Positions 1 to 39,500 of a stretch of 64,000 bases of DNA are shown here, one piece after another. A program made the position numbers and the translations under genes. Location: positions 20,946-84,945 of the forward strand of contig JAZDKK010000023.1 of NCBI GenBank assembly GCA_043803015.1. Direction: 5' to 3'. How positions within the stretch are numbered: position 1 is the first letter of the stretch; each line of letters begins with the position of its first letter. The notes under the pieces are model-generated. The model searched no databases and had not been told where the DNA came from. It saw only the letters and a list, made by a program, of their open reading frames with translations. The stretch comes from Verrucomicrobiota bacterium. Its GTDB lineage: Bacteria; Verrucomicrobiota; Kiritimatiellia; CAIQIC01; JAGNIJ01.

Positions 1-830
1 CTGTCGTGCTGGTCAGCACCTCGGCCTTGCCCTCGCGCGATACGGCGGCAGCCAGGCCCCAATCGATCAGGAGCACTTCCCCGTAGTCCCCCAGCATGAC
101 GTTCTCGGGTTTCACGTCCCGATGAATCACCCCCCGGCTGTGCGCAAACGACACGGCGTTCGCCACCGCCATGAAGATCTCCAGGTTCTCCCGAAGCCCC
201 TTCTGGCCGAGCGACTGCGACCAGGCCCTCCCCCGGATCCGCTTCATCGCGTAGAAGGGCAGGCCCTCCTGGTTCAGGCCCAGTTCGTAGACGGGGACGA
301 TATTCGGGTGCTCCAACGCGCCGGTGGCAACGACCTCGGACAGAAACTTCTTCCGCCGTGGCTCGTCGAAGCCCGGCTCCGGCTTCATCACTTTCAGGGC
401 AACCACCCGGTCCACCGATGTCTGCCGGGCTTCGTAGATCACGCCCATGCCGCCTTCTCCCAGCGGTCCCAGCAGTTCGTAGTGCGGATGCGCCCCCGCG
501 CTCTCGGCCTCGCTCAGGACTTTCTGCTGGCGCAGGGCCAGGCGCGCGGAGACGCCTTCGACTTGCTTGTCGACGGCCTCTGGGCGCCGCAACTTGACGG
601 TCACCTCCGGCCGCGCGTTGTCATCCGTGAGCCCCCGCCAGAGCGTGGCCACCTGCTCAACCGTCAGGGCGTCGGGTGATGGCAACGGCGAAACGGCGGG
701 GGATGCGTCGGCGGAGGCGTCGCCGGTGGAAACGAGGGAGCGGCCGCAGGCGGGGCATGCGCCCTTAAGAACGTCTGTCTCCTGAAGCTCCGTCTGGCAA
801 TGCGCGCACCTGCGCATCGTACCCCCCTCC
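1..830 (-). CDS. Ser/Thr protein kinase, N-terminal zinc-ribbon plus kinase domain; the 3' end of the gene lies beyond the window start
   Basis: Minus-strand translation from ATG at 828-830 reads MRRCAHCQTELQ..CPACG (CxxC..CxxC). Kinase motifs follow: GEGGMGVIYEARQ, VALKVMK, HRDVKPENVML, DWGLA. It is a close paralog of the N-terminus of the 28377..32468 kinase. It is not in the ORF track because it has no stop inside the window. Confidence 0.8.
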
Positions 831-18400: not shown

Positions 18401-18401
18401 T

Positions 18402-18679: not shown

Positions 18680-18727
18680 CGAAGCAGATGCTTCGCATCG
18701 CTTCGGGGCACGGCACGGATTTCACGG
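18680..18727. repeat. left boundary inverted repeat of the low-GC island
   Basis: CGAAGCAGATGCTTCGCATCGCTTCGGGGCACGGCACGGATTTCACGG matches the reverse complement of 24143-24189 at ~45 of 50 positions. The related segment 18525-18560 matches the reverse complement of 24110-24155. Confidence 0.5.
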
Positions 18728-18800
18728 GCGCCTGCGATCTGCCCACCTCGCACGCCTAATTTGCAACTCAATCACCGGCCCCGTTTTGGAGACTGCTATT

Positions 18801-19688: not shown

Positions 19689-19790
19689 ATGGTACTTCCT
19701 TTGTGTATCGTGTTGTCTTCCCAACAATGCGGCTGAGTTTCGTTTCTTCCGCCGCGGAAAAAACACAGACTCCAGCCGCTGGTCGGAGGC

Positions 19791-20300: not shown

Positions 20301-20353
20301 TTCGATCCCCTTTCCTGCAACGTCTGCCTTCAGCATCCGTAGTCTGGGGTAGT

Positions 20354-20632
20354 CCGGGGTCGAACCATAGCTTTCTCTAGAGCACCAACCACTTATGACT
20401 CCCAGAACCCACTTTTCACCCCTTACAGCTTCTTTTTCAGCCCGAAAATCGCTGCTAAGGCTCCCGTTCCTTGCGCAACACCCTCCCACCCGCGCCCTTG
20501 GGAGCTCAAGACGTGGCCGAAAAGAGCCTGTAAGCCCCCGTCTTAGCCCCTCTTGCCGTCGTAGGTCGTTGCCTGCCTAGACCGACCTGCTGCGCCTCGC
20601 CGAAGCCCCGGGCGAAGGCGGGTGGTCCAACC
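20354..20632. repeat. MITE-like repeat copy A (TIR CCGGGGTCG.ACC)
   Basis: Over 20375-20590 it shares ~85% identity with 22150-22365 (TCTAGAGCACCAACC..GCTCAAGACGTGGCCGAAAAGAGCCTGTAAGCCCCCGT..). It sits immediately 5' of the gene starting at 20300. Confidence 0.6.
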
Positions 20633-20649
20633 TCGCCATCCTGTCTTCT

Positions 20650-21339
20650 TCATCCTTCAATCCACCATCTCTGAGGTCCTGGCAGGGGAAGTGAGCTCGC
20701 GATCTGGTTGACAGCTTCAGCTGCGGACCGCACCAATCCTTTCATCCAGTCAAAATGAAAACAGATCTGTTTGTAGTGCTCTGTGGATGGCGAGGACTCG
20801 GTCACGTTTACATAGCTGACATTTGCCTTCCTGTCGGTCATGGGTCTGGAAGTGGCGAACTTGCCGAGCGAGTAGTTGTGGACAAGGCCGCAACGCGCTT
20901 CACGGTAGAGAAGGTGCGCGTAGCTGAATTGCCGCAATTGTTCCTTGGAGAGTTGGGGGCATTCTATGAGAAGGTCGTCTTCCATGCCGTCAGCGTCGTC
21001 ACCTGTAATAATCAACGCGTGATGCGGTGGTAGGTACTTCTGCCGGATTGAATCTGCGGCCTGTCGTTTGATGGGGTCTGTGTCGCGTGCGAATTCCTGA
21101 ACTAGCATCGCCGTGCTTATGAACTGCGTTTGGAGGGTTGGTTTGCAGTAGGTGACAAGGAGTTCAACGAAGCGCTTGCGATCGATTCTCTCGCCCGGCC
21201 AGACGAGCGAGGCGATTCCACTCAACACGGCAAGAAGTAGGATTACGGCCTCAGGGTAGCCTGCGTCGCAGGCTCCGTCGGCGAGTCTCTCTGCGATGCC
21301 GATGCGGTGCAGGGCGAATTTGTTGATCCAGTCATTCAT
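20650..21339 (-). CDS. hypothetical protein with a possible HEPN-like Rx4H motif (RCGLVH)
   Basis: 229 aa: MNDWINKFALHRIGIAERL.. It has no recognisable family. The HEPN suggestion rests only on the Rx4HxY pattern and the island context. Confidence 0.45.
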   Translation of the reverse strand: MNDWINKFALHRIGIAERLADGACDAGYPEAVILLLAVLSGIASLVWPGERIDRKRFVELLVTYCKPTLQTQFISTAMLVQEFARDTDPIKRQAADSIRQKYLPPHHALIITGDDADGMEDDLLIECPQLSKEQLRQFSYAHLLYREARCGLVHNYSLGKFATSRPMTDRKANVSYVNVTESSPSTEHYKQICFHFDWMKGLVRSAAEAVNQIASSLPLPGPQRWWIEG

Positions 21340-21349
21340 GTTTCCGCCT

Positions 21350-21456
21350 CCGGGGTCCTCCGGGGTCGGACCACAGGTTCCTCTAGAGCACCAACCAGTT
21401 ACAGTTCCCAGAACCCCGCTTAGCGTCCAAGTGGGGTTCGCCTTCTACGACCCCGG
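21350..21456. repeat. MITE-like repeat copy B (short form, ~107 bp)
   Basis: It starts CCGGGGTCCTCCGGGGTCGGACCACAGGTTCCTCTAGAGCACCAACCAG and ends CGACCCCGG. It sits immediately 5' of the gene starting at 21339. Confidence 0.55.
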
Positions 21457-21506
21457 CAGGAAACGCAGACTTCAGACACAAGATCGAGCCTTGGTCTGGC
21501 TAACGC

Positions 21507-21710
21507 CTAGGCGTGGAAGAACTCGATCAGTTCTTCCCAGCTCTTCCTCACGCCGTTTCCTCTACGCGTCCGGCCAGCGCACCACTCGATTGTGGCCCTG
21601 CCGATTCGGAGGTCACCTAGGTGTTTGTTCTGGCCGTCGTACACATCCAGTTCAATGCCGTTGTTCCCAATCTCCATACTAACCTGGAACTCCTTCACGC
21701 TAACCTTCAT
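21507..21710 (-). CDS. hypothetical small protein (67 aa)
   Basis: MKVSVKEFQVSMEIGNNGIELDVYDGQNKHLGDLRIGRATIEW.. It may be co-transcribed with 21808..22080. The start position is within +/-1 nt by my reading. Confidence 0.35.
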   Translation of the reverse strand: MKVSVKEFQVSMEIGNNGIELDVYDGQNKHLGDLRIGRATIEWCAGRTRRGNGVRKSWEELIEFFHA

Positions 21711-21807
21711 GTTATCCTCCCTGCTTCGTCGCTTGAACGTTACGGGCGGGCCGGCCGCAAGACCCGTTCGATGGCAGCCTTCACTCGCCCCGTGGCCCGC
21801 ACGTCAA

Positions 21808-22080
21808 CTATCTCTTCTTGGGGCGACCGGGGCGATTATGCGGGACGAGCCGCTTGACTTGGCTGAAGCCTTGGTCAAGTTGTTCGAACGCCTGCCGGGC
21901 GCCATCCTTCCTCCCTTGAATGTACACGGCTTGCATGATCTGGGCGAGTTTGACGCCTTCGTACAAACTGGCATTCCTGACAATGTCCTCTACGGCTTGC
22001 ACCAAACGCCTCCCGGCGTACAGCGTTAGCTCAGTGGTTGCCAATGCGACTTTGACGGTCTTGAAACCGCGTTTGCCCAT
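21808..22080 (-). CDS. hypothetical small protein (90 aa), possibly an RHH/antitoxin-like DNA-binding protein
   Basis: MGKRGFKTVKVALATTELTLYAGRRLVQAVEDIV.. RBS GGAAAGGAGAG. The antitoxin idea comes only from its size and position upstream of a second small ORF. Confidence 0.4.
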   Translation of the reverse strand: MGKRGFKTVKVALATTELTLYAGRRLVQAVEDIVRNASLYEGVKLAQIMQAVYIQGRKDGARQAFEQLDQGFSQVKRLVPHNRPGRPKKR

Positions 22081-22104
22081 GATAGCTCTCCTTTCTTCTC
22101 GCGT

Positions 22105-22384
22105 CCGGGGTCGGACCACCCGCCTTCGCCAGAGGCTACGGCGGGCACGACAGGTTGCTCTAGAGCACCAACCAGTTACAACTCCCAGAACCCCGCTTTT
22201 CACCCCTTACAGCCTCTTTTTCGGCCCGAGAACTGGCCGCAAGACTCCCGTTCCTCAGGCAGCACCGCCGCTCACGCCCTTAGAAGCTCAAGACGTGGCC
22301 GAAAAGAGCCTGTAAGCCCCCGTTTTGGCCCTTTTGCCGTCGTAAGTCGTTGGCTCCCTAGACAGACCTGTGGTCCGACCCCGG
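22105..22384. repeat. MITE-like repeat copy C (full form, with terminal inverted repeats)
   Basis: The left end is CCGGGGTCGGACCACC.. and the right end is ..CCTGTGGTCCGACCCCGG. A nested ~30-bp insert, CCGCCTTCGCCAGAGGCTACGGCGGGCACG, lies in the left TIR. It sits immediately 5' of the gene starting at 22080. Its right TIR encodes the last 8 codons of the 22358..23092 gene. Confidence 0.6.
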
Positions 22385-23092
22385 CAAAACACCTTGTTTC
22401 TCTGGCATGGCTTTCAAGTACTCGTCCGACTGAATCACGAGATCGATCCAGTTGACTGTCATGTTCACGAGTGCCTTGAGATCCCTGAGATCCTTCTCTT
22501 CCCATTTTCTCGTGTAGTGCGTTTCATCATTCCCTAACCATGCGGCACGCTTCGCGCAGTGCTTGATGCGATCTTCGTCAATGAACTGCTCGATGCATGT
22601 GGCAAGAAATGCCTTGGCCACCGCCGCAGCCTTTGATGCATCGCTTCTGAACTTATAGTGGATGATGAAGTCCTTAATCAGGAACTCTAGCGACTTGCGA
22701 TATCCCGGACCGGCAATCTGGTCCAGGCCGTTTTCCTCGGCCACGAGCGACTGGTTGTATGTCGTGCAGAAGACAGGGGAGAGCTTGGCAACCGCGTCGG
22801 GGAACGTCACGGCGTTCGCGGCGCGGAGTATCGTTGTTTCCACGAGATTGCACATAGCGTTCTGGACGGAGGTGCTGCGGGTATTGTAGGCGGCGATGAA
22901 CATCTCCTTGCAATCGTCAGCGGGACATATGAAGGAGACGCGGATCTTGTGATCTCCTTCGCTCAGGTAGTGCCCGATAATGGGTTGTGGCTTCACGGAT
23001 GTCTGGCATGCAGGGCACGTGTCGGGAAACTTGTTGATGCTGATGATGTGCTGCTGTCCCGTTTCATCCACGGCTGTGATTTGGTGCGGCAT
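22358..23092 (-). CDS. zinc-finger plus DUF4145-type (HEPN-superfamily) protein, candidate abortive-infection/defence component
   Basis: The N-terminus has CPAC..CPADDC. The C-terminus has ..DRIKHCAKRAAWLGNDETHY.. which fits the DUF4145 R..GN...H signature. Confidence 0.55.
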   Translation of the reverse strand: MPHQITAVDETGQQHIISINKFPDTCPACQTSVKPQPIIGHYLSEGDHKIRVSFICPADDCKEMFIAAYNTRSTSVQNAMCNLVETTILRAANAVTFPDAVAKLSPVFCTTYNQSLVAEENGLDQIAGPGYRKSLEFLIKDFIIHYKFRSDASKAAAVAKAFLATCIEQFIDEDRIKHCAKRAAWLGNDETHYTRKWEEKDLRDLKALVNMTVNWIDLVIQSDEYLKAMPEKQGVLPGSDHRSV

Positions 23093-23152
23093 GTTCTGGT
23101 TCTCCTGGAGCTAACGTCAAGAATCACCGTGCCCTGAACCTGCGCAGCAGGT

Positions 23153-23419
23153 TCAGGGCACCGTGGATTCTCTGGTTCGGCCGTGTTTGGTCTCGAAGGA
23201 TCTGAATCTTGACTTCCCCTCCTTGCGCAAGGACGCCAATTCCTTCTCAAGCCACGCGATCTGTGCGTCGAGTTCCTCGTAAGTCACACACTCGGCGCCG
23301 AGTAAGGTGTGGCGACCTTCCGTGAATCGGCATTTCAGACGAATGTGGGCGCGGGGTCGGCCGGGGAGATCGCCTTTACGTGGGGTTTGAAACAACAAGC
23401 CGAAGTATAGCGTCCTCAT
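23153..23419 (-). CDS. hypothetical small protein (88 aa)
   Basis: MRTLYFGLLFQTPRKGDLPGRPRAHIRLK.. Its start overlaps the upstream membrane-protein stop (ATGA at 23416-23419). Confidence 0.35.
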   Translation of the reverse strand: MRTLYFGLLFQTPRKGDLPGRPRAHIRLKCRFTEGRHTLLGAECVTYEELDAQIAWLEKELASLRKEGKSRFRSFETKHGRTRESTVP

Positions 23420-23847
23420 TCGTTCCTCCTTCTGATGGCGCTTCGCACAACTTCTGCGAGAAGCAGCAACAATCCCACTGACAAGGTGATCCAGCCTCTC
23501 CCCCATTCGGCACCTTGGTCGGCAATCTTCGCAAATGATGCGACAAACCGGTCACTGGCATTTGCCAATCCGAGCACTCGGTGGGCGGCTGCGTGGTAGC
23601 TGAAGATGGCCCACGCAAAACCCCCGAAGGCAAGAAGACAAAGTGGTCCGGCGATGCGTTCTCGGCCGGTAAACCAGAAGTAGAACGAGAGAACGCCCAC
23701 GGCTGAGAGGAAGAGCGCGCAGAAGGGATCTAATGTCCAGAGGACTGTCCCACCAAAAAGGGCATGCTCTTCTACCCTAATCCGCGGTGCGAGCGCGAGG
23801 ATGACCGATCCGATGAGCCCGAGACCATGCGTTTGTTCTTCTGGCAT
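23416..23847 (-). CDS. hypothetical membrane protein (3-4 transmembrane helices)
   Basis: 143 aa with hydrophobic segments IGSVILALA, LWTLDPFCALFLSAVGVLSFYFWF, LCLLAFGGFAWAIF and ITLSVGLLLLLA. Confidence 0.5.
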   Translation of the reverse strand: MPEEQTHGLGLIGSVILALAPRIRVEEHALFGGTVLWTLDPFCALFLSAVGVLSFYFWFTGRERIAGPLCLLAFGGFAWAIFSYHAAAHRVLGLANASDRFVASFAKIADQGAEWGRGWITLSVGLLLLLAEVVRSAIRRRNE

Positions 23848-24142
23848 CTTTGTTCTCCTGCAGAACAGTTTGCATTACTCAGTTAGGTTCACGCTTCCCT
23901 ATCCCTGCCGAATCCGGTGCCAGGCCAACCGTTGCCTATCCTGGCTGAGGTTGTCTTCCCCTCCTGCCGCGATCCGGATGCAGTCCGCCGTAGCGGGGGC
24001 GAGTATAGCGGGAGGGAGGGAAGCGCGCAATGCGCGCTTCAGGTTCAGAGTTCAAGGTTCAACCCGCCTACGGCGGGCAAGCATCGAACTAGGAAGCAGG
24101 CGCGTAGAAAGGAGGATCGGAGGTCCACCCCATGTTACCTAT

Positions 24143-24434: not shown

Positions 24435-26441
24435 TTACTTCACCACGGCCCCGCTGGAGAGATCGCCGTCGAGCGTGATGAGGCGCATGGTCTCGCCTTT
24501 GGACGCGGCGAGGAGCATGCCCTGGGATTCCACGCCGCGGATGGTCGCGGGCTTGAGGTTGGCGACGACGACCACGGTCTTGCCCACGATCTGCTCGGGC
24601 TCGTAGTGCAGAGCGATCCCGGCGATGAGCTGGCGGCGCTCCTCGCCCATCAGGACCTCGAGCTTCAGAAGTTTCGTCGCGCCGGGGACGCGCTCCGCGG
24701 CCATGATCTTGGCCGTGCGGAGCTGGACCTTGGCGAAATCGGCGTGGTCGATCAGCTCCGGCGGCGGGGCAACTTCTTTCGCGGGCGGCGCGGACGGCTG
24801 GGCCTCGGCGGGCTTGTCTTTGGGGGTGGTCTCGTTCACGGGGGTAATGTCCTTCGGGTTGGCTTCCAGTTCAAGCTGTTCCGGCGCGGGCGCCGCGTCG
24901 GCGTCCGCCACGCGCGGGAAAAGCGCGCCGATCTCCTTCACCGCCGCGCCCGGTTTCAGATGGCCCCAGGTCCGGAGGTGGGCCAGGTCGGGCTCGGCCT
25001 TCTTGACCCCCAGCGCAGTCCGGAGCTCGGCCATCTTGCCGGGCATCACGGGGTAAAACAGCGCGGAGGCCACGCGGAGCGCTTCCGCCGCCGTGTAGAG
25101 CGTCGTGCGCAGCGGCGCCTTGTCCTTCTGCTTGGCCTGCGTCCAGGGCTGTTTCACTTCGAGGTAGCGGTTGATGGCGCGCACCGCGGCCAGGACGTGC
25201 CCGACGCCCTCGTTGACCTTCATCCCGCCGACGGCGACCTCCATCCCGGTCACCGCATTCTGCGCGGTCTCCCAGAGGGCCTGCTCGTCCTTTCCCTCCA
25301 TCGCGTGCGGCTCGCACTCCGGGATCTTCGCGCCGCAGTAGCGGGTGATCATGTTCAGGATCCGGCTCAGCAGGTTGCCGAGGTCGTTCGCGAGGTCGGC
25401 ATTGTACCGGCGGACAAAGGCGTCCTCCGTGAAACTCGCGTCCTGGCCCGGCGCCATCTCCGCGATCACGAAATAGCGGAACGCGTCCACGCCGCACTTC
25501 TCGATCATGTCCAGCGGGTTGACGACGTTGCCGCGCGACTTGCTCATCTTGCTCTCGCCCGAGAGCCACCAGCCGTGCGCGAAGACCGTTTCCGGCAGGG
25601 GCACGCCCATCGCCTTCAGCATCGTCGGCCAGTACACCGTGTGCGTCGTCAGGATGTCCTTGCCGATCAGGTGGTACGTCACCGGCCACCACTTGGCGAA
25701 CAGGGCCTCGTCGCTGAGGTAGCCGATGGCGCTGATGTAGTTCACGAGCGCGTCGAACCACACGTAGCAGACGTAGTCCTTGTCGAACGGCAGGTCGATG
25801 CCCCAGCTCATCCGGCTTTTCGGGCGCGAGATGCAGAGGTCGGTCAGCGGCTTGCGCAGGAAGCCCAGGGTCTCGTTCGCGCGGAAATCGGGCTGGATGA
25901 AGCCCGGGTGCTCCCGGATGTACCCGATGAGCCAGTCCTGGTGCTTGCTCATGCGGAAGAAGTAGTTGGCCTCCTTGATCCGCTCCACCGGGCGACGGCA
26001 TTCGGGGCAGTTGCCGTCCACCAGGTCCTTCCCCATGAAGAACCGCTCATCCGGCACGCAGTACCAGCCGTCATACTCGGCGCGGTAGATCTCGCCGCGG
26101 TCGTAGAGGTCCTGGAGGATCTTCTGGACGACGCTCTTGTGGCGCTCCTCGGTCGTGCGGATGAAGTCGTCGTTCGTGATCCGGAGTTTCTTCCAGAGCT
26201 CCTGGAACCGGAGGACCATCTCGTCCGCGTGCTCCCGCGGCGTGATGCCCCGGGCTTGGGCGGCCTTCTGCACCTTCTGGCCGTGCTCGTCGGTGCCGGT
26301 CAGGAAGTACGTCGGCGCCCCCAGGAGGCGGTAGGTGCGCGCCAGCACGTCGGCCAGGATCGTCGTGTACGCGTGGCCGATGTGCGGCTTGTCGTTTACG
26401 TAGTAGATCGGCGTGGTGACGTAGAACTTCGCTCTGTCCAT
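24435..26441 (-). CDS. metG: methionine--tRNA ligase with C-terminal tRNA-binding (EMAP/Trbp111-like) domain
   Basis: 668 aa with the HIGH motif PHIGHAYT, the KMSKS motif and a CPEC zinc knuckle. The C-terminal 110 aa form a tRNA-binding domain. Confidence 0.95.
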   Translation of the reverse strand: MDRAKFYVTTPIYYVNDKPHIGHAYTTILADVLARTYRLLGAPTYFLTGTDEHGQKVQKAAQARGITPREHADEMVLRFQELWKKLRITNDDFIRTTEERHKSVVQKILQDLYDRGEIYRAEYDGWYCVPDERFFMGKDLVDGNCPECRRPVERIKEANYFFRMSKHQDWLIGYIREHPGFIQPDFRANETLGFLRKPLTDLCISRPKSRMSWGIDLPFDKDYVCYVWFDALVNYISAIGYLSDEALFAKWWPVTYHLIGKDILTTHTVYWPTMLKAMGVPLPETVFAHGWWLSGESKMSKSRGNVVNPLDMIEKCGVDAFRYFVIAEMAPGQDASFTEDAFVRRYNADLANDLGNLLSRILNMITRYCGAKIPECEPHAMEGKDEQALWETAQNAVTGMEVAVGGMKVNEGVGHVLAAVRAINRYLEVKQPWTQAKQKDKAPLRTTLYTAAEALRVASALFYPVMPGKMAELRTALGVKKAEPDLAHLRTWGHLKPGAAVKEIGALFPRVADADAAPAPEQLELEANPKDITPVNETTPKDKPAEAQPSAPPAKEVAPPPELIDHADFAKVQLRTAKIMAAERVPGATKLLKLEVLMGEERRQLIAGIALHYEPEQIVGKTVVVVANLKPATIRGVESQGMLLAASKGETMRLITLDGDLSSGAVVK

Positions 26442-26505: not shown

Positions 26506-28221
26506 TCAGGGGGCGGCGACGGGCAGGGAAACGACGAAGGTCGTGCCCTTGCCCGGCGTGCTTTCGGCGGAGATGGTGCCCCCGTGGTTCTGGACAATGC
26601 CGTAGGTCATGGCGAGGCCCAGGCCCGTGCCGCCCAGGCGGCCCCCTTCCTTCTTCGTCGTGAAGAAAGGCTCGAAGAGCTTCCTCTGGACGTCCTCGGT
26701 CATGCCGAGACCGTTGTCGCGGATGGCCACGATAACGAACTGTTTCCCGTCGGACCGTTGCAGGCTGGTGCTGATCTCGATGAACCCCGGCTCTTCCTTG
26801 CGGAAAGCTTCGATGTCGTTCAGGAGGATATTGATCAGAACCTGTTTCATCTCGCTGGCGTCGGCGAGCACCTCCGGGAGGTCCGGCGCAAGCTGGGTCT
26901 CGCAACGCCCGCCGGCCTTCATAATCTCATGACGAAGGAAGGAGACCGTCTCCTCGATGATCGCGTTGATCTGCAGCCGCGTCTTCTCCGGCTTCGACTG
27001 CCGCGCGAACTTGAGCAGCTTGTCGATCACTTCCTTGCAGTGCAGCACGCCGGTCTGGATCTCGCCCACGCACTCCCCGACGTCCAACGTTCCCGCCTTC
27101 TCGACCCCCGCTTTCTTGAGAGACTGGCCGAGCAGATCGGCGTAGCCCAGGATGACCGTCATCGGGTTCTTCACGTCGTGGACGATGCCGGCCGTCATAC
27201 GCCCCATCGCCGCGAGCTTCTCGCTTCGGACCAGCACCTCCTGGGCGGCCTGGAGCGCCCGATGGGCCTTGTCGAGCTCCGCCTTCTCGCCGGCCAGCTT
27301 CTCGTAGAGCAGCGCATTCTCCAGGGCCGCGCCGGCCTGCATGCCGATCGCCATCAGCAGACGCAGATCGTCCGGCTTCAGGCAGTCCGCCGCGGCGGTC
27401 GAACTCGCGTGCAGCACGCCGAGCAGGCGGTCCCGGCTTTTCAGCGGCGCGCACAGAGCCGAACGAATCCCCTGCGCGGCGATGCTGATCTGGTCGCCGA
27501 AACGCTTGTCGACGCCGGCGTCCCGCGAGAGCACCCCCCTCCCATCACGCAGCACGACCTGGGCGATGCTCCGGCTGAAGACCGGATTCTCGCTTCGGCT
27601 GTTTTCCGCGCGGCTCCAATGGCCGACACAGCGGAGCTCGCCGGTGACTTCATCAAGACAGTGCATGGAGCAGTGCTCGACGGACGACATCTCGTGGATG
27701 ACCATCTCCGGCACCCTGCTGTAAAGCTCGGCCGTGTGGATGACGGCGTTGATCGCCTGGCCGGAGCGGTAGAGGGAGGCCAGGTCCGCGCGCGCGCGCT
27801 GCACGGCCGCCGGATCGGACTCGTCGATGCGCCGCGTCGCCAGGTCGCCTTCCTGCGCCTCCAGCGTGACCGTGTCCCCTATCCTGCCCGAGACGTCCCA
27901 CGGCACCCCCGAAGGACCGGCCGTGCCGCGCGAAAAGCGCGCCACCGTCTTGCCGATCCCGATCCGATCGCCATCCGCGAGGGTGGCCCGGGGGGCCGGG
28001 TTTCCGTTGACGAGCGTGCCGTTGCGGCGGCCCGCGTCCTCGACGATGTAGTCGGAGCCTTCGCAGAAGACGCGCGCGTGCACCCGGGAGACTTCCTCGT
28101 CGGCCAGCGTGATGTCACAGCCCTTCCGCCCGAGGGTTATCTCGTTGGATGTGAGAAAGAGGAGCTCGCCTTTTCGCGGCCCCTCGAGGAACAGCAGGTA
28201 GCTGCCCGCCTGGGATTCCAT
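26506..28221 (-). CDS. FHA-GAF sensor histidine kinase
   Basis: The N-terminus is an FHA domain (ITLGRKGCDITLADEEVSRVHARV..GTLVNG). It is followed by GAF, an H-box HDVKNPMTVILGYADLL, and the N, G1 and G2 boxes (NGLGM, GTGLGLAM). Confidence 0.9.
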   Translation of the reverse strand: MESQAGSYLLFLEGPRKGELLFLTSNEITLGRKGCDITLADEEVSRVHARVFCEGSDYIVEDAGRRNGTLVNGNPAPRATLADGDRIGIGKTVARFSRGTAGPSGVPWDVSGRIGDTVTLEAQEGDLATRRIDESDPAAVQRARADLASLYRSGQAINAVIHTAELYSRVPEMVIHEMSSVEHCSMHCLDEVTGELRCVGHWSRAENSRSENPVFSRSIAQVVLRDGRGVLSRDAGVDKRFGDQISIAAQGIRSALCAPLKSRDRLLGVLHASSTAAADCLKPDDLRLLMAIGMQAGAALENALLYEKLAGEKAELDKAHRALQAAQEVLVRSEKLAAMGRMTAGIVHDVKNPMTVILGYADLLGQSLKKAGVEKAGTLDVGECVGEIQTGVLHCKEVIDKLLKFARQSKPEKTRLQINAIIEETVSFLRHEIMKAGGRCETQLAPDLPEVLADASEMKQVLINILLNDIEAFRKEEPGFIEISTSLQRSDGKQFVIVAIRDNGLGMTEDVQRKLFEPFFTTKKEGGRLGGTGLGLAMTYGIVQNHGGTISAESTPGKGTTFVVSLPVAAP

Positions 28222-28332
28222 GGCTGCCCCGTCAGCCTTGATCGTCGCCCCCTTTTTCTGCTAGAAGAGGGTACCCGCGCGCAGGTATCGAGTAAAGCAA
28301 TGAGCTTCGGCCACGGCGCGGAGAGGATGCTT

Positions 28333-28352
28333 CTCTGACGTCTGACGCAGAG
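28333..28352. promoter_or_regulatory. imperfect 20-bp palindrome in the divergent histidine-kinase / Ser-Thr-kinase promoter region
   Basis: CTCTGACGTCTGACGCAGAG contains a TGACGTC core and lies 25 bp upstream of the kinase ATG at 28377. Confidence 0.25.
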
Positions 28353-28376
28353 GGAAGTCCAGTCACGGCGTAGCAC

Positions 28377-31300
28377 ATGGACCCGGGGCGGAACTGCAAG
28401 GTATGCGGAGCAGCGCTTCTTGACGACGCGCGGGAGGGACTTTGTCCCGTGTGCCTGCTGATCGGCGGGTCGAAGGCGGCAGGCGACGAGGGCGAACCGG
28501 CTGCCGCCGACGCGAACCAGGAAACACTCTCCCTCGTCGACAACCTCTGGCACGAGACGGTCCAGGGCACGGCGACAGCCGAGACGACCCTGAAGTCCCC
28601 GCCGTCCACGGATACGGCGGCGCCGCCGGCCGAATCCAGCCGGCTTTGCCTTCGCGCCCAGGAGGTCTCCAACGCAAAAGCCCCCGTGGTTCCCCCCGCG
28701 CACTACGAAGTCGTCCGCACGATCGGCGAGGGCGGCATGGGGACCGTGTACGAGGCACGCCAGACGTCGGCAGACCGGGTGGTCGCCATCAAGGTGATGA
28801 AGACGGGTCCGACCCGCGGCACGGAGCGGCGGGAAAGATTCCTCAGCGAGGCCGCGGCCACGGCCGACCTGGAGCATCCCAACATCGTGCCGGTGTACGA
28901 GGTGGCTACGGACCGGCAGGGCGTGCCGTTCTACGTGATGAAGCGCGTGCGGGGGGTTCCCTGGAGCCAGGTCCTTCGGCTCAAGAGCCTGACAGACAAT
29001 CTTGAAGTCCTGCTGAGGGTGGCGGACGCGGTCTCCTTTGCGCACAGCCGCGACGTCATTCACCGCGACCTGAAACCCGGAAACGTGATGCTCGGGGATT
29101 ACGGCGAGGTACTGGTGCTGGACTGGGGGCTTGCCGGTTCCGTGAGCAGGCAGGGCAAGGCGGAGCAGTTGAAGCCCGGATCCGTGCGAGGCGGCACGCC
29201 GGCGTACATGGCGCCGGAACTGGCCAGGGGCGACATCAGGCACACAGGCAAGCACAGCGACATCTACCTCCTGGGGGCCATCCTGTTCGAGATCCTTGCA
29301 GGTTACCCACCCCACCGGGATCCCGACGTATGGAAGAGCCTCGCCCTGGCCGCCGACAACGTCATCCTGCCGACGCGGGCTTCCGGCGAGCTGCTCAGGA
29401 TCGCGCTGAAGGCCATGGCCGCGGACCCTGCGGCCAGGTACCCCACGGTGAAGGACTTCCAGGCCGCGATCCGGCTGTACCTGTCTCACGTGAACAGCGT
29501 GTCCATCGCGTCCCAGGCGCAGAAAGCCCTCGATCGCGCCACGGCCTCGGGCCAATACGACGATTTCGCCGCGGCCGTCTTCGGATACCGGGAGGCGTTG
29601 AGCCTGTGGGACGGCAACGAGGCGGCCGCCGAGGGGCTTTCCGAGGCATGCCGCGCCTACGCCGAGTGTGCGTTGCGGAAGGGGGATGTGGACCTGGCCG
29701 CGTCCCTCGTTTCCGGGGACCGAGCCGAGGACAAGGATCTCGCGGGGCGGATCGCCGGGGCGCGCCGGGAGCGGGATCGGAGGCGGCGGGTCATCCGCTC
29801 GCTGAAGGTCCTGGCGGTGAGCCTTACCGCGGTGGTGGTCATCGTGGTGACGGTGGCGTTCTTCTGGATCCGGGGCGAGCAGGCCCTGACGCTGGCGGCG
29901 AAGAACAGGGCGGAAGGCGCCCTTGCCGCGGAGGAGAAGATGAGGCGCGAGGCGGAAGGGGCCCGGGCTTCCGAGGAGCGATTGAGGATCAGTGCGGAAT
30001 ACGATGCCTACGTGGGCCAGGTGGGTCTGGCCGCAAGCTGCCTCGAGCATGGCGAGGTGCTGGAGGCCAGGCGGCTGCTGGCCGCCTGCGCCCCGAAGTA
30101 CCGGAATTGGGAGTGGGCTTACCTCGCGCGTCTCCCTTTCCTGGACGAGATGACCTACAAGGCCAGCCAGAGGTTTGTCACCCATCTGGCCGTTCTCCCG
30201 GATGGGCGGCGGTTCATCACCGCGGGAGCGAATGGATCGCTCAGGCTGTGGCAGATCGGCACACCCCAGTGCTTGCGCGAGACCCGCGCCCATGCCGGCT
30301 GGGTCGACGGCATGGCCGTCTCGCCGGATGGCAAGTACGTGGCGTCCGCCGCCGGCGACAACCGACTTACCGTGCATCGCGCGGACGATTTGAGTCTTGT
30401 GCGCGAGACGAAGCTACCTGAGAAACACTGCGCTTGCATCGCCTTCTCGCCGGACGGCCGCACCATCGGAGTCGGACAAGAGGGCCTCGTATCGCTGTAC
30501 GACGCAGAGAACGGTACTCTGAAGAAGAGCATTCCCCGAAAAGGTGATGATGTCACGCTCGCCTTCTCTCCCGACGGCAAGAGCCTGGCCACGGGGGGGG
30601 TGAACCCACCACTCGAGATCTACGACATGGAGCAAGGTACGGTCAGGGGGATTGACCGCAGCGATATCCCGTGGGTCCGCTCGGTCAACTTCAGTCCCGA
30701 TGGCAAGAAGTTGCTCATTGCGCCCGGGTTCGGAGGCGCCCTCGTTCTGGACCTTCCAAGCGGCGACGCCGTTCACCTGCGAGGGCATCGGGCGCCGCTG
30801 ACGCGCATCGAGATGCTCCCGGACCAGTCGCTGGTCGCTACGGCGTCCGAGGACACCTCCTGCATCCTCTCGGATCCGGCCACCGGCCAGCCGGTGCGCA
30901 CCTTGCTCGGCCACACCGCGAGGATCACCGCCCTGGGTGTTTGCCCCGACGGCAAGAGGCTGATCACGGCGGGAGCCGACGACGAGATCAAGGTCTGGAA
31001 CATCCGTGGTCCCGACCGGTTCTCCTCGTTCAACATGGGTAACACCGTGCCCCTTTCCCTCGCGTTCTCCCCGGGTTCATCCTTGCTGGCGGTGGGAACC
31101 GCCGGCGGGGGGATCCGAATGCTGGAGACGGCAACGGAGCGCGAGGCAAGCGTCCTGAGTCTTGGGGGATGGATCTTCTCGGTCAACTTCTCGCCGGACG
31201 GGAAGTACCTGCTGGCTGCAGGCGGGTTCGCCGGGTGGGGCAAGGCGTGGCTGTACGACGTTGCGGACCGCTCCAAAATCCGGGAGTATCAGGTATCCAA

Positions 31301-32468
31301 CCGCGACTTCGATTCGGCGGCCATCTCGCCGGACGGGAAGCATATCCTGATGGGCTCGCGCGACGCGGCGATCCGCCTCCTTTCACTTGAGGGTGGGAAC
31401 GTGGAGAAGGTGTTCACGGGCAGTTCCGAGGCGGTGTTGGATCTGGCTTTCTTCCCGGACGGGCAGCACTTTCTGAGCTGTGGCCGCGATGCGACGCGAT
31501 GCTGGGAGATCGGGACGGACCATGAAGTGTGGCGCGCTTTCGAGTTGGGCCAGCCCTTTGCCGTTGCGGTGTCACCGAAAGACAACGTCTTCTACGCGGA
31601 CGGAACTCTGTATCGTGGGGTGGAGCGCGCCAATCTTCACGCCCTGCGCGGGCAACGCGGAACGATTGTTGCGGCCGGCTTCTCCCCGGACGGCGAGCGG
31701 ATCGCGACGGGAAGCAGGGACGGATCCATCAAGATCTGGGATGTCCGCACGGGACGCTCGCTTCTGACCTTGCGGCAACACAGCGGAGAAGTGAAGGATG
31801 TCCGTTTCTCGCCCAGCGGCCTCCTGCTGGCAAGCGCTGGAGCGGACGGGCAGGTCGTTCTCTGGAGGGCCGCGGACCGTGGCTCCCTGGAGGCCAAGGG
31901 ACGCATCGGCGCCGCGCTCGTCGCCGAGACAGAGGCGCCGGCTCCGCTGGCGTCCAACCTGCTCCGCAACGCCGGCTTCGACATCGCCGGAACGCAGGAG
32001 AAGAAAGCGTACGCGTGGGAGGCCGGCAACCCCGATTCCCGCGGGGACGCCTGGGGGGCCGCCTCGAGGGAGTCCTGGCGAGGCCGGAGCGGCGGCTGGG
32101 AAGGGACGATCTGCGGCTCATGGTGCGGAAAGGACTCGGGCGGCTGGTGGCAGGAGGTCGCCGTCAAGCCCGGCCGGCAGTACCGCCTGACCGCCTGGTG
32201 CTACGCGGACTGCGGAATAGCAGGCGCGTGGACGTCCGCATGGCACGGAGCGACGCTCGAGTTCTTCTCGCACGAGGGAAAGGATCGCCGCCCGCTGGGC
32301 GCCGTTTCCAGCCACTTCGGAGTGTTGCAGGAGCAATGGAGCCCCAGGGAGTTGTCAGCCACGGCACCAGCCGGTGCCAGCTGGGCACGGCTGTCGATCC
32401 TCGCGGTAACTAACGGCAACGAAGGGGCACTCCAGTTCGACGATCTCTCCCTGGAAGAAGTTCCCTGA
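28377..32468 (+). CDS. Ser/Thr protein kinase: zinc-ribbon, kinase, transmembrane helix, 14 WD40 repeats (two propellers), C-terminal CBM_4_9-like carbohydrate-binding domain
   Basis: 1363 aa: CKVCG..CPVC, GEGGMGTVYEARQ, HRDLKPGNVML, DWGLA, APE. The transmembrane helix is LKVLAVSLTAVVVIVVTVAFFWI. There are 14 units of the form xFSPDGKxL..G..DG.i.lWd. The C-terminus has ..YRLTAWCY..ARLSILAV..ALQFDDLSL. Confidence 0.9.
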   Translation: MDPGRNCKVCGAALLDDAREGLCPVCLLIGGSKAAGDEGEPAAADANQETLSLVDNLWHETVQGTATAETTLKSPPSTDTAAPPAESSRLCLRAQEVSNAKAPVVPPAHYEVVRTIGEGGMGTVYEARQTSADRVVAIKVMKTGPTRGTERRERFLSEAAATADLEHPNIVPVYEVATDRQGVPFYVMKRVRGVPWSQVLRLKSLTDNLEVLLRVADAVSFAHSRDVIHRDLKPGNVMLGDYGEVLVLDWGLAGSVSRQGKAEQLKPGSVRGGTPAYMAPELARGDIRHTGKHSDIYLLGAILFEILAGYPPHRDPDVWKSLALAADNVILPTRASGELLRIALKAMAADPAARYPTVKDFQAAIRLYLSHVNSVSIASQAQKALDRATASGQYDDFAAAVFGYREALSLWDGNEAAAEGLSEACRAYAECALRKGDVDLAASLVSGDRAEDKDLAGRIAGARRERDRRRRVIRSLKVLAVSLTAVVVIVVTVAFFWIRGEQALTLAAKNRAEGALAAEEKMRREAEGARASEERLRISAEYDAYVGQVGLAASCLEHGEVLEARRLLAACAPKYRNWEWAYLARLPFLDEMTYKASQRFVTHLAVLPDGRRFITAGANGSLRLWQIGTPQCLRETRAHAGWVDGMAVSPDGKYVASAAGDNRLTVHRADDLSLVRETKLPEKHCACIAFSPDGRTIGVGQEGLVSLYDAENGTLKKSIPRKGDDVTLAFSPDGKSLATGGVNPPLEIYDMEQGTVRGIDRSDIPWVRSVNFSPDGKKLLIAPGFGGALVLDLPSGDAVHLRGHRAPLTRIEMLPDQSLVATASEDTSCILSDPATGQPVRTLLGHTARITALGVCPDGKRLITAGADDEIKVWNIRGPDRFSSFNMGNTVPLSLAFSPGSSLLAVGTAGGGIRMLETATEREASVLSLGGWIFSVNFSPDGKYLLAAGGFAGWGKAWLYDVADRSKIREYQVSNRDFDSAAISPDGKHILMGSRDAAIRLLSLEGGNVEKVFTGSSEAVLDLAFFPDGQHFLSCGRDATRCWEIGTDHEVWRAFELGQPFAVAVSPKDNVFYADGTLYRGVERANLHALRGQRGTIVAAGFSPDGERIATGSRDGSIKIWDVRTGRSLLTLRQHSGEVKDVRFSPSGLLLASAGADGQVVLWRAADRGSLEAKGRIGAALVAETEAPAPLASNLLRNAGFDIAGTQEKKAYAWEAGNPDSRGDAWGAASRESWRGRSGGWEGTICGSWCGKDSGGWWQEVAVKPGRQYRLTAWCYADCGIAGAWTSAWHGATLEFFSHEGKDRRPLGAVSSHFGVLQEQWSPRELSATAPAGASWARLSILAVTNGNEGALQFDDLSLEEVP

Positions 32469-32546: not shown

Positions 32547-32588
32547 CCGGGGCGGTTCAGCACGGCTTCGTTGAACCGGGAGGTGCCT

Positions 32589-33053
32589 ATGCTGGAACTG
32601 ACAGTATTGAGCACGGCGTTCGTCATGGGGGCGGTCATCCCGCCGAAGTTCACCTGCAAGGGCGAGAACGTTTCGCCGCCGCTGATGTGGGGCCAGGTGC
32701 CCGACAAGACCCAGAGCATCGTGGTCATGTGCGACGACCCGGATTCGCCGGGCGGAGACTGGGTTCACTGGCTGTTGTTCAACCTTCCGCCCGAGACCCA
32801 GAAACTGGACGAGAACGTCCCTCGGACTCCGCAGCTCGTCAGCGGCGCGATCCAGGGACTGAACGATTACGACAAGAACGGCTACATGGGGCCCTGCCCG
32901 CCGCCGGGCAGGCCGCACCGGTACTACTACAAGGTCTACGCGCTCGACATCAAGTTGAGCCTGACCATCTCGGCCCGCAAGCCCGACGTCCTGGAAGCGA
33001 TGGAGGGCCACGTCCTGGGGCAAGGCCAGTTGATGGGGACGTTTAAGAGGTAA
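32589..33053 (+). CDS. YbhB/YbcL family Raf-kinase-inhibitor-like (PEBP) protein
   Basis: It has the PEBP signature DPDSPGGDWVHW and ..YGPCPPPG.HRYYF-like (here YMGPCPPPGRPHRYYYKVYALD). RBS GGGAGG. Confidence 0.85.
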   Translation: MLELTVLSTAFVMGAVIPPKFTCKGENVSPPLMWGQVPDKTQSIVVMCDDPDSPGGDWVHWLLFNLPPETQKLDENVPRTPQLVSGAIQGLNDYDKNGYMGPCPPPGRPHRYYYKVYALDIKLSLTISARKPDVLEAMEGHVLGQGQLMGTFKR

Positions 33054-36528: not shown

Positions 36529-39500
36529 CTACGGCTGGGTGCGCACCCGGTAGAACCTGGCGGCCGCGCCCGACGTCGCGTCGGTGTAGACGTTCTCGGG
36601 GGCCGTGGCCGGGATGCCCAGTTGGAGCTGCTGGAACCCTCCCTCCGTGTCCACGAGGTCGGTCGAGCGGAACAACCCGTACTGCCTGCCCGACACGCTG
36701 TGCCAGCGCACCACGAACCCGGTGCTGCCGCTGGAGAGCGGCGAGTACAGGCGGAAGTACGAAACGGCGTCCTTGGGGTTCGTGCCCGCGTAGCTCTCGT
36801 CGCGGTCCTGCGAGTGATCTGTGTCCCAGTCGGAAACGGCCGAGGCGATGGCCAGGCTGGCGAAATACTGCATCTCCCAGCCGTCGGAGATCCCGTCCCC
36901 GTCCGAATCGGCCAGCGCCATGCCGACCTCGATCGGGTTGAGATCCACCATGCTGAACCCGTAGTTGCCGCTGGACGTGGGCGAAGCGGACCGGGCGAGG
37001 TAGTTGCCCGAGATGTACCGGTCCTGGTTGTTCGTGCTCGTGTTGACGACCAGCCCGGCCAGCACGCAGTTCGTGATGACGCCGATCCCGTTGGTCGAGC
37101 ACCCGAGGCTGGCCAGCGGAATGCCGCACTCCCAGCGGAGCATCAGCCGGCTGCCGTCCATGTCCGTCGCCGTCACGGCCAACGTGCCGGTCCCGTCGAA
37201 CTGCGAAAGCCGCGCGCCGGCCACCGGGTCGAACCGGCCGTACCGGGACAGGTAGAACACGCCCTGGCCGAAGTCGTAGCCGTCCCCCAGGTTGAAGTTG
37301 GTGAAGGTCCCGTCGCCGTACTCGTCGCCGATCACGATGGCGATGTCTACCGGCTTGGCGAAGGTGACGTTGTGCAGGAAGTCCAGCCCGCTGGGGAAAC
37401 CGGTGATGCCCCAGAGATTCGGCTGGTCATCGGGCAGGGTGTTGAAGCCCAGGAAGATGATCATCGCGTTGTTGCTGCCGGCCATGTCGCAGCCGATGCC
37501 GCCGATGTAGAAGTTGTTCGGGTCATAGTTGACGTAGACCCGGCCGAAACTGCCGAACCCGGCCTGGTTGGACGTCTGCGCGTACCCGCCGCCCTTGTTC
37601 AGGTCGAAGTTGTCGCCGATGTTGTTCTGCTCGCCGGCGTCATCCGTGACCGTGGGCGAGCCCTCGATCAGCCGGATGCCCGCCTGGGCTACCGCGCCCG
37701 TGCAGCCGACCACCACGACCGACCAGTCCTGGGCGCCGTTGTTGTCCCAGGTGTTCGAGCCGTCCTGGAAACAGCAGTTGATCTGCTCCGTGGCTTCGGG
37801 CGGCGAGTACGTGTAGGTCCATGTGCTGCCCACCTTCCCCATCGCCACGTCCGTTACGTCCTGCCAGTTGTTCCGGCCGACATGGATGTATACCTGCGCC
37901 GCGGTCTTCAGCGGGCCCTGGTTCGGGTGATACGTGATGCCGACGTTCCCGCAGCCGACCGGGCTGGCCGGACTGAACGCGACCGAGGACGGCCCGCCCG
38001 TGCTGCAGGACGAGACGGCCACGGACCAGTACTGGCCCGTACCGCCATCCACGATCGTCGGGCTCGCGTTCGAGTTGGCGAAGAAGACCCTCATCTCGGC
38101 CGTGCCGCTCGCCACGCCGTTCGAGAACACCCACGCGCTGTTGGTCCACGCCATCTGGAACACCTCCCACCCCAAACCCCGGTGGAGGCTGACGTACACC
38201 GGCGAGGCGTTGGAGAGCGGCCGCCCGGCGGGGGTGTACGTGGTGGTGATGAAATCCGTGTCGCAGTCGCGCGGAGCGGCGGGCGAGAAGACCACGGGCG
38301 AGTTCGTGCCGGCGCAGTTCGTGACGGACACCCCGTAGTCCGAGCCGCTGTTGTTGTCCCAGGTGCCCGCACCGTTGTTGAAGCAGCAGTTGATCTGGTA
38401 CGTGCCCGGCGGCGGAGAATACGTATGCTTCCACACGACGCCCGTCTTCGTCATGGCCGGGTCCGGGCTCAGCACGCCCTGCCAGCCGTTGTAGCCGATG
38501 TGGATCCGGACCTCGGCCGCGTTGGAGAGCACGCCGTCGTTCGGCGCGTACGTGATCTCGACGGGATCGCACCCGCTCGGCGCCGGCGGGCTGAACGTGG
38601 CCGCCGCGGCCACCTGGCAGTGGGAGATCGCCACCGACCAGTTGTCGCCGTTGTTGTTGTCCACCGTCCCGCTCTCGTCCGCCGTGTTCCGGAAATACAC
38701 GATCGCGTTCGTGGAGCCGGATGGAATGGCGTTCGTGCGGATCCACGAGGCGGTCCCGGCGGAGCTCATGACGTAGTTCGAGGCGGCCGTGGCGAAGTTG
38801 TCGAACGCGATCTTGAGGTAGACCGGCGAGGCATTGCTCAGCGGCCGGCCCGAGGCGGCGTAGCGCGTCACGAGGTTGCCGCAGTCCTGCGGCTGGGCCG
38901 GCGTGAAGTCCACGGCGGTCGTCACGTTGCTGAGGCCCACGAACACGTGCAGGATGTCGCTCCGGTTCGTGTTGCCTTTGCCGTCCACGGCCTCGACGAA
39001 GTAGTCGATGAGCACGTTGTTCTGGCCCGCGATGGGCGCGCGGTACTCCTCGGCGCGGTACGTCGCTTCCGGCACGATGTTGTCGGGGCCCTTCACCTTG
39101 GGATCCCACTGGTTCGTCATGGTCTGGGTGTTCCACGCGTTGACCTCACCCCCGCCGAAGTAGGTCTCGTTCTGGATCGAGGAGATGGGGTTGCGTCCGT
39201 CCTTGTCCGTGCGCCAGTAGAGCCGCGCCACCGCCACCGTGTTGACGTCGTACACGTACGTCCAGACCTCGAAGTCCGACGACGCCGGCGTGGCCTCGTT
39301 CCACATGTAGCCGCCGGGGTTGTAGGAGTTCCGCTGCGGCGGGAAGAGGCTGGGCCCGTTGGTGTCGACGCCCGGATGCCGGCCGATCACCTGGTCCGCA
39401 TACCACACGGCCGTGTTGCAGGCGCGCGTCGCATTGCCGTCCCAGGGGTTGCCGCGGTCCAGGTCCCAGTACCAGTAGCAGGACGTCTCGCCGTTGAGGT

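Follow-up and report, generated by a model that had tools for sequence, protein, structure and literature searches.

Can a serine/threonine (Ser/Thr) kinase in the membrane pass its signal to a soluble histidine kinase that carries a phosphothreonine-binding FHA domain? The question is raised by two divergent genes in a 64,000-nucleotide stretch of Verrucomicrobiota DNA (assembly GCA_043803015.1, contig JAZDKK010000023.1, positions 20,946 to 84,945), which we refer to in its full length as the window. The G+C content of the window is 65%, and codon-position G+C picks out two long genes within 26506-32468: one at 26506-28221 on the minus strand, encoding a histidine kinase of 571 amino acids (aa), and one at 28377-32468 on the plus strand, encoding a Hanks-type Ser/Thr kinase of 1363 aa. 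We estimate a probability of about 0.55 that the two form a signaling module in which Ser/Thr phosphorylation feeds into a two-component pathway. A relay of this kind had been proposed in a sequence-only reading of the locus, whose open reading frames (ORFs) and domain assignments (FHA, GAF, HisKA, HATPase_c, Pkinase, WD40) agree with our coordinates and Pfam matches. The proposal is plausible and backed by comparative genomics, which support the relay but do not prove it.

The minus-strand gene encodes the candidate reader, with the following parts.

26506..28221, minus strand: FHA-GAF-HisKA-HATPase_c histidine kinase, soluble, 571 aa, no receiver domain (ORF and Pfam, all four domains above gathering score)
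27931..28191, minus strand: FHA domain, residues 28-90, or 11-97 by the related YscD model (PF00498, 58.3 bits, threshold 20.7; PF16697, 55.4 bits)
27316..27708, minus strand: GAF domain, residues ~172-302 (PF01590, 41.8 bits; PF13185, 40.4 bits)
26515..27207, minus strand: histidine kinase core, HisKA at residues 339-408 and HATPase_c at 454-569 (HisKA 39.1 bits, threshold 26.9; HATPase_c 83.9 bits, threshold 26.4)

A 100% identical protein exists at NCBI, encoded on a 97.7-kb contig of a Verrucomicrobiota metagenome-assembled genome (MAG). No transmembrane segment was found in the histidine kinase (best 19-residue Kyte-Doolittle [KD] value, 1.25), and with no hydrophobic segment the protein should be soluble. 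Its only input domains are the FHA domain and the GAF domain, the latter probably a small-ligand or regulatory module. The phosphoacceptor of HisKA is H348 in an HDVKNP motif, and the HATPase_c domain carries the N, G1, F, and G2 boxes. Across an alignment of 21 proteins of the same four-domain architecture (29-63% identity, 15 of them close orthologues), the invariant positions include H348, N464, N468, D502, G504, G506, F516, F519, G531, G533, and G535. The core comes closest to models of the AtoS/ZraS/NtrB type and to those of EspA and EspC, all at scores so far under the cutoffs that orthology to any named kinase is ruled out. Furthermore, literature searches for FHA-GAF or FHA-histidine kinases returned nothing specific, and we regard the FHA-GAF-histidine kinases of the Planctomycetota-Verrucomicrobiota-Chlamydiota (PVC) bacteria as a new family without prior characterization. 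As the sequence-only reading had noted, no cognate response regulator lies next to the gene: none appeared in Pfam scans of the window's likely genes, and precomputed Pfam annotates no Response_reg domain among the called genes of the retrieved orthologue loci. The histidine kinase is presumably an orphan whose response regulator is encoded elsewhere.

Conservation in the FHA domain bears directly on whether the protein reads phosphothreonine. The pocket consists of G31-R32, S45-R46-x-H48, and N67-G68. S45 and N67 do not vary in any of the 21 relatives. R46 is constant among the 15 close orthologues and reaches at least 90% in the full set of 21, and G31, R32, and H48 are at least 90% conserved among the aligned relatives. 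The conserved positions coincide exactly with the canonical phosphothreonine contacts (G-R, S-x-x-H, N-G), a pattern that argues for a functional phosphopeptide pocket. It also speaks against a coupling of another kind, in which the FHA domain would be autoinhibitory or dimerizing without phosphothreonine, or the histidine kinase a mere substrate phosphorylated in its GAF or DHp part, or the FHA protein an inhibitor or scaffold of the Ser/Thr kinase. Nothing in the sequence sets the direction of signaling; FHA proteins can regulate their kinases, and Grundner et al. in 2005 reportedly found FHA domains phosphorylated by mycobacterial kinases. With a pocket conserved in just those residues that contact phosphothreonine, we consider these schemes improbable.

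If the histidine kinase is a reader, the divergently transcribed neighbor is the obvious candidate writer.

28377..32468, plus strand: membrane Hanks-type Ser/Thr kinase with periplasmic sensor, 1363 aa (ORF, Pfam, and predicted topology)
28395..28454, plus strand: N-terminal four-Cys knuckle, CxxC-x12-CxxC (C7, C10, C23, C26), a motif read from the sequence and kept in the paralogue
28455-28700, plus strand: Thr-rich linker, residues 27-108, between Cys knuckle and catalytic domain
28704..29456, plus strand: catalytic domain, residues ~110-360 (PF00069, 129.6 bits, threshold 31.7)
29802..29870, plus strand: single transmembrane helix, residues 476-498, N-in/C-out (KD 2.87, K/R in flanks)
preceding the WD40 region, plus strand: coiled-coil-like linker with an NWEWAYL motif, residues 499-595
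30162..31886, plus strand: 14 WD40 blades, residues 596-1170, predicted periplasmic (WD40, 222 bits, threshold 27, plus many beta-propeller families)
31941..32465, plus strand: C-terminal jelly-roll of ~175 aa, residues 1189-1363, CBM_4_9 superfamily, CBM16-like (AlphaFold2 [AF2] and Foldseek)

Judged by its motifs, the kinase is catalytically intact: GEGGMG117, VAIK, HRD229, and APE279 are present, and DFG is replaced by DWG249 with the metal-binding Asp kept. The Cys knuckle has no significant Pfam match (only a weak rubredoxin-like one, E = 0.089), and its position matches that of Pfam Zn_Ribbon_1 in kinases beside other FHA-GAF proteins. Assignment to the PASTA kinases (PknB/Stk1, NF033483) was rejected, with 203.6 bits against 450, a match confined to the kinase and juxtamembrane region, and no PASTA domain. 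The transmembrane helix lies after the catalytic domain, where the sequence-only reading had placed it, and is preceded by RRERDRRRRVIRS, such that 8 K/R fall in the 15 residues before the helix versus 2 after it. No N-terminal signal peptide was found in the kinase. Since there is one N-in/C-out helix and no signal peptide, and since the catalytic domain depends on ATP in the cytoplasm, residues 499-1363 (~865 residues comprising linker, propellers, and jelly-roll) are predicted to be periplasmic. This topology agrees with the earlier claim that the WD40 part and C terminus are extracytoplasmic; the word "extracellular" does not hold, because in a diderm cell they would lie in the periplasm. 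The expected 14 blades were likewise recovered, as 14 copies of an SPDG-type motif at a spacing of ~42 residues, and we infer that they close into two seven-bladed propellers.

Whether reader and writer belong together was addressed by a co-occurrence check set beforehand as a way to refute the relay, and its outcome favors the pairing. For proteins that share the FHA-GAF-HisKA-HATPase_c architecture (36-49% identity), we collected the surrounding genes, which gave 14 informative loci including the window. In 6 of the 14, a membrane Hanks kinase gene stands beside the histidine kinase gene, in one of them (L005) one gene away behind a PP2C phosphatase.

Window: kinase-WD40-CBM-like (CBM, carbohydrate-binding module), divergent
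L002: kinase-FGE-sulfatase, upstream on the same strand, 32-bp gap
L003: kinase-HEAT, divergent
L007/L008: kinase-C-type lectin, upstream on the same strand
L009: kinase-FGE-sulfatase, divergent
L005 (2623-9680): 1495-aa protein with two tandem kinase domains, in a co-directional row of histidine kinase, PP2C, and kinase
L001, L006, L090, L091, L092, L095, L097, L099: no kinase nearby

Kinases occupy 5 of 24 adjacent slots versus 3 of 135 other genes (~2%; Fisher p = 0.002), and the association strengthens when L005 is counted (p = 0.00015). Adjacency is thus ~10 times above the kinase density of the same loci. L005 is a complete writer/eraser/reader set. In addition, all five partner kinases whose N-terminal half was read have a hydrophobic, transmembrane-like stretch after the catalytic domain. 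Their ectodomains are unrelated (WD40, FGE-sulfatase, HEAT, C-type lectin), and their catalytic domains share only 27-40% identity, on which grounds we rejected the idea that the partners are one orthologous clade; the pair is therefore not a vertically co-inherited cassette. Taken together, these comparisons suggest that the functional link between histidine kinase and Ser/Thr kinase is probably real. A metagenome scan with the FHA-GAF module yielded three close and three distant histidine-kinase members, which adds two or three loci to the co-occurrence count. A profile search of genome contigs with the 15-sequence alignment was seeded on generic histidine-kinase motifs, missed the source genome, and returned 80 unrelated kinases without the FHA region, while the 21-sequence alignment held no conserved stretch usable for such a search.

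The same loci can be read differently. Adjacency could be incidental: the FHA-GAF kinase might read general phosphothreonine or one distant kinase, the WD40 kinase might have other substrates, and the histidine kinase might be transcribed with metG. Two further genes of the window matter here.

24435-26441, minus strand: metG, co-directional with the histidine kinase gene and 64 bp downstream of it
2..817, minus strand: N terminus of a second kinase (Pkinase match), the remainder of which lies beyond the window

The second kinase had been recognized in the sequence-only reading as being of the same N-terminal type. It is a paralogue of identical length (P0128, 1363 aa) with the same full architecture; its N-terminal 120 residues are identical to the translation of ORF 2-817, and it shares 44% identity with the main kinase end to end and 63% in the catalytic domains. 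At least two kinases thus lie within 64 kb, and Ser/Thr kinases are abundant in PVC genomes according to a survey of Planctomycetota (PMC11032199). An incidental arrangement would also accord with the mutual divergence of the partner kinases, which are not orthologues of one another, and with the eight loci where no kinase is adjacent. What it does not predict is the roughly tenfold excess over background, nor the fact that the paired genes are divergent in some loci and co-directional, as in an operon, in others, once together with a PP2C phosphatase. On balance, we find an incidental arrangement unlikely.

Several points nonetheless weigh against the two-gene module. The enrichment is real, yet pairing is facultative, with 8 of 14 loci lacking an adjacent kinase; such neighborhoods may have formed several times or frequently have been lost. 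The sample behind the background rate is small, namely the remaining 135 genes in these loci and in the window. These genomes encode many Ser/Thr kinases, each of which might supply the phosphothreonine that the FHA domain reads, the paralogue with 63% identity in the catalytic domain among them. Pfam scans of the window's likely genes revealed no receiver-domain protein, no PP2C phosphatase, and no further FHA protein, leaving the proposed pathway with neither eraser nor response regulator in the window. Finally, with 64 bp separating it from the co-directional metG downstream, the histidine kinase gene could simply belong to the metG transcription unit.

What the kinase might sense depends on its periplasmic part, and above all on the C-terminal domain. 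The sequence-only reading had described this domain as CBM_4_9-like, a description that is sustained at the level of fold and fails as a Pfam sequence match: the domain matched nothing in Pfam, CBM_4_9 (PF02018) included, at E <= 10. A word-index homologue search produced a single fragment, and an exhaustive search of 1.84 billion representatives produced 205 clusters with the domain, 119 of them at E <= 1e-10. Among 30 family members, 4 match CBM_4_9 weakly (best E = 0.0027), and the family profile run against PDB sequences identifies the CBM16 structure 2zex (E = 0.002). A single-sequence AlphaFold model was unusable (predicted local distance difference test [pLDDT], 49), and we used instead an AF2 model built with a 30-sequence alignment, which is a jelly-roll with a pLDDT of 95.8. 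Foldseek places CBM16 2zex first for this model (E = 6e-9, TM 0.65/0.75), followed by CBM4-2, CBM22, and CBM61. Identity to true CBMs is 16-20%, and phage tail-fiber and toxin domains are among the structural neighbors. Carbohydrate binding is suggested by the modeled fold only, and the family is distinct, without a Pfam model of its own.

The distribution of this family is informative about where the domain works. It often occurs in several copies within giant proteins, the largest of 7,648 aa, and in the members that we read it directly follows the signal peptide. Of 128 full-length representatives, 86 have a signal-peptide-like hydrophobic N terminus and 7 end in a PEP-CTERM-like motif. Because most full-length members begin in this signal-peptide-like manner, the domain appears to be an exported one, which independently supports export of the sensor part of the kinase. 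PEP-CTERM is a sorting signal associated with exopolysaccharide producers. Some short family members end in PEP-CTERM-like motifs, and the window itself encodes two small proteins with C-terminal PEP-CTERM motifs (54351-54941 and 55234-55920, both minus strand) just upstream of a giant ORF; no further copy of the CBM-like domain was found in the window, including in the giant ORF and these two proteins. Fusion of the domain to a kinase is rare and, as far as our survey goes, new: among 149 family representatives it was seen only in the window kinase and its paralogue.

Alternatively, the periplasmic part may not be a glycan sensor at all. The propellers and jelly-roll could serve as a protein scaffold or an envelope anchor, for example in localizing the kinase, and the ligand could be proteinaceous. 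WD40 propellers are typically protein-interaction platforms, and the low identity to real CBMs, the lack of a Pfam CBM match for the domain itself, and the presence of phage tail-fiber and toxin domains among its structural neighbors would all sit comfortably with a scaffold. However, the top matches in both sequence profile and fold are all carbohydrate-binding modules, and the domain is found in giant secreted proteins as well as in proteins ending in PEP-CTERM-like tails. A scaffold or anchor is possible, and we hold it to be doubtful.

Under the two-gene module that we favor, a ligand in the periplasm would change the oligomeric state of the kinase. This ligand could plausibly be a glycan, from the envelope or exogenous, bound at the CBM-like module and/or a partner bound to the propellers. 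The kinase would then autophosphorylate on Thr. The likeliest site would be the Thr-rich N-terminal linker, because the activation loop has no Thr apart from the conserved GT. The FHA domain of the histidine kinase would dock on this phosphothreonine, recruiting the protein to the membrane kinase and perhaps leading to its own phosphorylation. Docking would in turn shift the balance between autokinase and phosphatase activity of the HisKA core (H348), whose HDxxN motif suggests a bifunctional enzyme. The GAF domain would provide a second, cytoplasmic input, and the output would pass to an unlinked response regulator.

How new would such a system be? The sequence-only reading considered it not to be a described signaling system, a judgment that goes too far given the Myxococcus pktA5-espA-espB-pktB8 cluster, the periplasmic WD40 kinases of PVC bacteria, and the classic pairs of Ser/Thr kinase and FHA protein. 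The wiring principle of a Ser/Thr kinase combined with an FHA-histidine kinase is already known from Myxococcus, and the novelty is narrower. Stein et al. in 2006 reportedly found that EspA has an N-terminal FHA domain and that Ser/Thr kinases interact with it. The Ser/Thr kinases of the Esp cluster are membrane-associated, and EspA has PAS domains. As in the window, Ser/Thr kinase genes (pktA5 and pktB8, which with espB are MXAN_0930, 0933, and 0932, respectively; bioRxiv 10.64898/2026.08.28.747804) are clustered with a histidine kinase gene, espA. PktA5 and PktB8 have been proposed to act with EspB, via a complex that possibly interacts with EspA, and both EspA and EspC are hybrid histidine kinases with a receiver domain (PMC4320627). 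The core of the window's histidine kinase resembles the EspA/EspC models NF052573 and NF052574, with 157 and 140 bits, but these values stand against cutoffs of 1400 and 1200, and the protein is no orthologue of either. It differs from EspA in having GAF in place of PAS and in lacking a receiver. Moreover, the window comes from another phylum, its kinase has a WD40/CBM-like periplasmic sensor, and it contains no EspB-like gene.

The kinase by itself is less unusual. According to the Planctomycetota survey, the dominant Ser/Thr kinase architectures in PVC bacteria join a kinase, a transmembrane helix, and a periplasmic WD40, TPR, or FGE-sulfatase region, with FGE-sulfatase the third commonest ectodomain type (PMC11032199). 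The window kinase has this architecture, with a cytoplasmic Pkinase domain, a single transmembrane helix, and a long periplasmic WD40 array, and comes from a PVC phylum, Verrucomicrobiota; FGE-sulfatase ectodomains also recur in partner kinases of the FHA-GAF-histidine kinase orthologues. Unlike the surveyed kinases, it adds a C-terminal CBM-like module, and the part of the survey available to us draws no link from such kinases to FHA-histidine kinases.

A kinase and its FHA partner are often encoded side by side. Known pairs are PknB or PknG with GarA, PknH with EmbR, and PknF with Rv1747 in mycobacteria, and the PpkA-PppA-Fha1 threonine phosphorylation pathway of Pseudomonas aeruginosa; in these, a membrane Hanks kinase autophosphorylates on Thr and so recruits an FHA effector (PMC6213207, PMC12189002). 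The kinase, PP2C, and FHA triad of P. aeruginosa has its like in L005. PknG has a Cys-rich metal-binding domain, and its N-terminal autophosphorylation recruits GarA (PMC12189002); the window kinase also combines a Cys knuckle with a candidate N-terminal phosphosite, which may be a likeness of layout only. In contrast to the window pair, the mycobacterial and Pseudomonas pairs direct their output not to a histidine kinase but to metabolic enzymes, a transcription factor, an ABC transporter, or a secretion system. Mycobacterium tuberculosis PknD consists of a kinase, one transmembrane helix, and an extracytoplasmic six-bladed NHL propeller. It shares with the window kinase the succession of kinase, single helix, and extracytoplasmic beta-propeller sensor, but its propeller is NHL and not WD40, it has no CBM-like module, and the window kinase scores 162.7 bits against the NCBIfam PknD cutoff of 839.

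The FHA-GAF arrangement extends beyond histidine kinases. When metagenomes were scanned with only the FHA-GAF module, 80 loci came back, most of which encode proteins without a histidine-kinase core. Five such proteins that we scanned carry an adenylate/guanylate cyclase (L100, L104, L162) or a sigma-54 activator (L119, L124), and precomputed Pfam annotation shows SpoIIE outputs fused to FHA-GAF as well. Four of these loci have an adjacent Ser/Thr kinase, which is a further point in favor of the link.

L119 (3730-8490): FHA-GAF-sigma-54 activator beside a Zn-ribbon-kinase-TPR protein
L124 (4255-9824): FHA-GAF-sigma-54 activator beside a Zn-ribbon-kinase-TPR protein
L162 (2485-6191): FHA-GAF-cyclase beside a Zn-ribbon kinase with no further Pfam domain
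L100 (7965-12120): FHA-GAF-cyclase beside a kinase-TPR-FGE-sulfatase protein, with a small stand-alone FHA gene preceding the kinase

Counting all kinases that adjoin FHA-GAF genes, 5 of 10 have an N-terminal Zn ribbon. M. xanthus has FHA-domain sigma-54 enhancer-binding proteins (Jelsbak et al. 2005, cited in PMC4320627), which resemble L119 and L124 in using FHA as the input to a classical bacterial output and differ from the window pair in that this output is transcriptional activation rather than His-Asp phosphotransfer. From its domain partners, FHA-GAF appears to behave as a portable, modular input. We tentatively raise the possibility, which goes well beyond the pair itself, that FHA-GAF is a receiver for phosphothreonine and a small ligand. 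In PVC and other environmental bacteria it would be dedicated to single-pass sensor Ser/Thr kinases, often with a zinc ribbon, as their partner in the cytoplasm, and would connect them to the output with which it is fused, be it a histidine kinase, a nucleotide cyclase, a sigma-54 activator, or a SpoIIE phosphatase. The window pair would then be a glycan-sensing example that turns a periplasmic WD40/CBM signal into His-Asp phosphotransfer.

The region between the two genes has less to say.

28222..28376, no strand: divergent intergenic region, 155 bp between the start codons (sequence)
28334-28347, within the intergenic region: imperfect palindrome or 7-nucleotide tandem, TCTGACG TCTGACG

Of the 155-bp shared divergent promoter in the sequence-only reading, the gap is exact and the promoter was an assumption: no sigma-70-like promoter was found in these 155 bp. 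A palindrome reported there did not survive scrutiny. The 20-mer CTCTGACGTCTGACGCAGAG is not self-complementary, and what is present is a 10/12 palindrome, TCTGACGTCTGA, with GACGTC at its center, which can equally be read as two TCTGACG units in tandem. In the window, a 14-mer search that tolerated at most 2 mismatches found 2 occurrences, a number equalled by 15 of 100 shuffles. Being imperfect and not enriched over shuffled sequence, the element was rejected as evidence and is given no weight.

The other neighbors are housekeeping or unrelated genes, among them a Zn_ribbon_8 protein, priA, and a giant GH57/CBM53 protein. Directly downstream of the Ser/Thr kinase gene is one further gene.

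32571-33053, plus strand: PEBP/RKIP-family gene, on the same strand as the Ser/Thr kinase gene and 102 bp downstream of it

Eukaryotic PEBP1 is a kinase inhibitor. The giant protein (36529-40854, minus strand, 1441 aa) joins GH57, CBM53, CBM25, and a bacterial TSP3 repeat in an unusually large starch/glycogen-active enzyme. Elsewhere in the window, the dcw cluster (mraW, ftsI, murE, murF, mraY, murD, ftsW) is intact except for ftsW (2873-4033, minus strand), which falls into two ORFs because of one in-frame TAG at 3410-3412 (…LAIM* NAERM…); the split could be a MAG assembly error, a pseudogene, or a case of read-through. Between ftsW and murD lies a gene with three LysM domains (4103-5224, minus strand), whose longest ORF shares ~180 nucleotides with the 3' end of murD, so that its true start is probably further downstream. 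A low-G+C island at ~18000-24000 (0.556-0.567 versus ~0.65 elsewhere in the window) is possibly horizontally acquired DNA, and four ORFs scanned within it (18801-19766, 19791-20489, 20650-21339, 22358-23092) have no Pfam matches. Finally, the giant ORF mentioned above (56222-64000, plus strand) exceeds 2592 codons and runs past the end of the window, with a hydrophobic, signal-peptide-like N terminus, a coding G+C3 of 0.91, and no Pfam match whatsoever.

Cross-talk between Hanks kinases and two-component systems is known mostly through kinases that phosphorylate response regulators, and to our knowledge the case for direct control of a histidine kinase by an FHA domain comes essentially from a single Myxococcus system of complicated genetics. 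A membrane kinase paired with a soluble FHA-GAF-histidine kinase, recurring across PVC bacteria with swappable sensors, would be a simpler model. The pair could be used to probe phosphothreonine-dependent control of His autophosphorylation, to ask what the periplasmic WD40 arrays that are abundant and unexplained in PVC bacteria sense, and to examine glycan binding by a CBM16-like family that has no Pfam model. Its present value lies in a testable hypothesis and the definition of a family rather than in a new principle. If the broader possibility of FHA-GAF as a portable receiver were true, there would be a conserved module of linked genes in which eukaryote-style logic of receptor kinase and adaptor feeds a two-component system.

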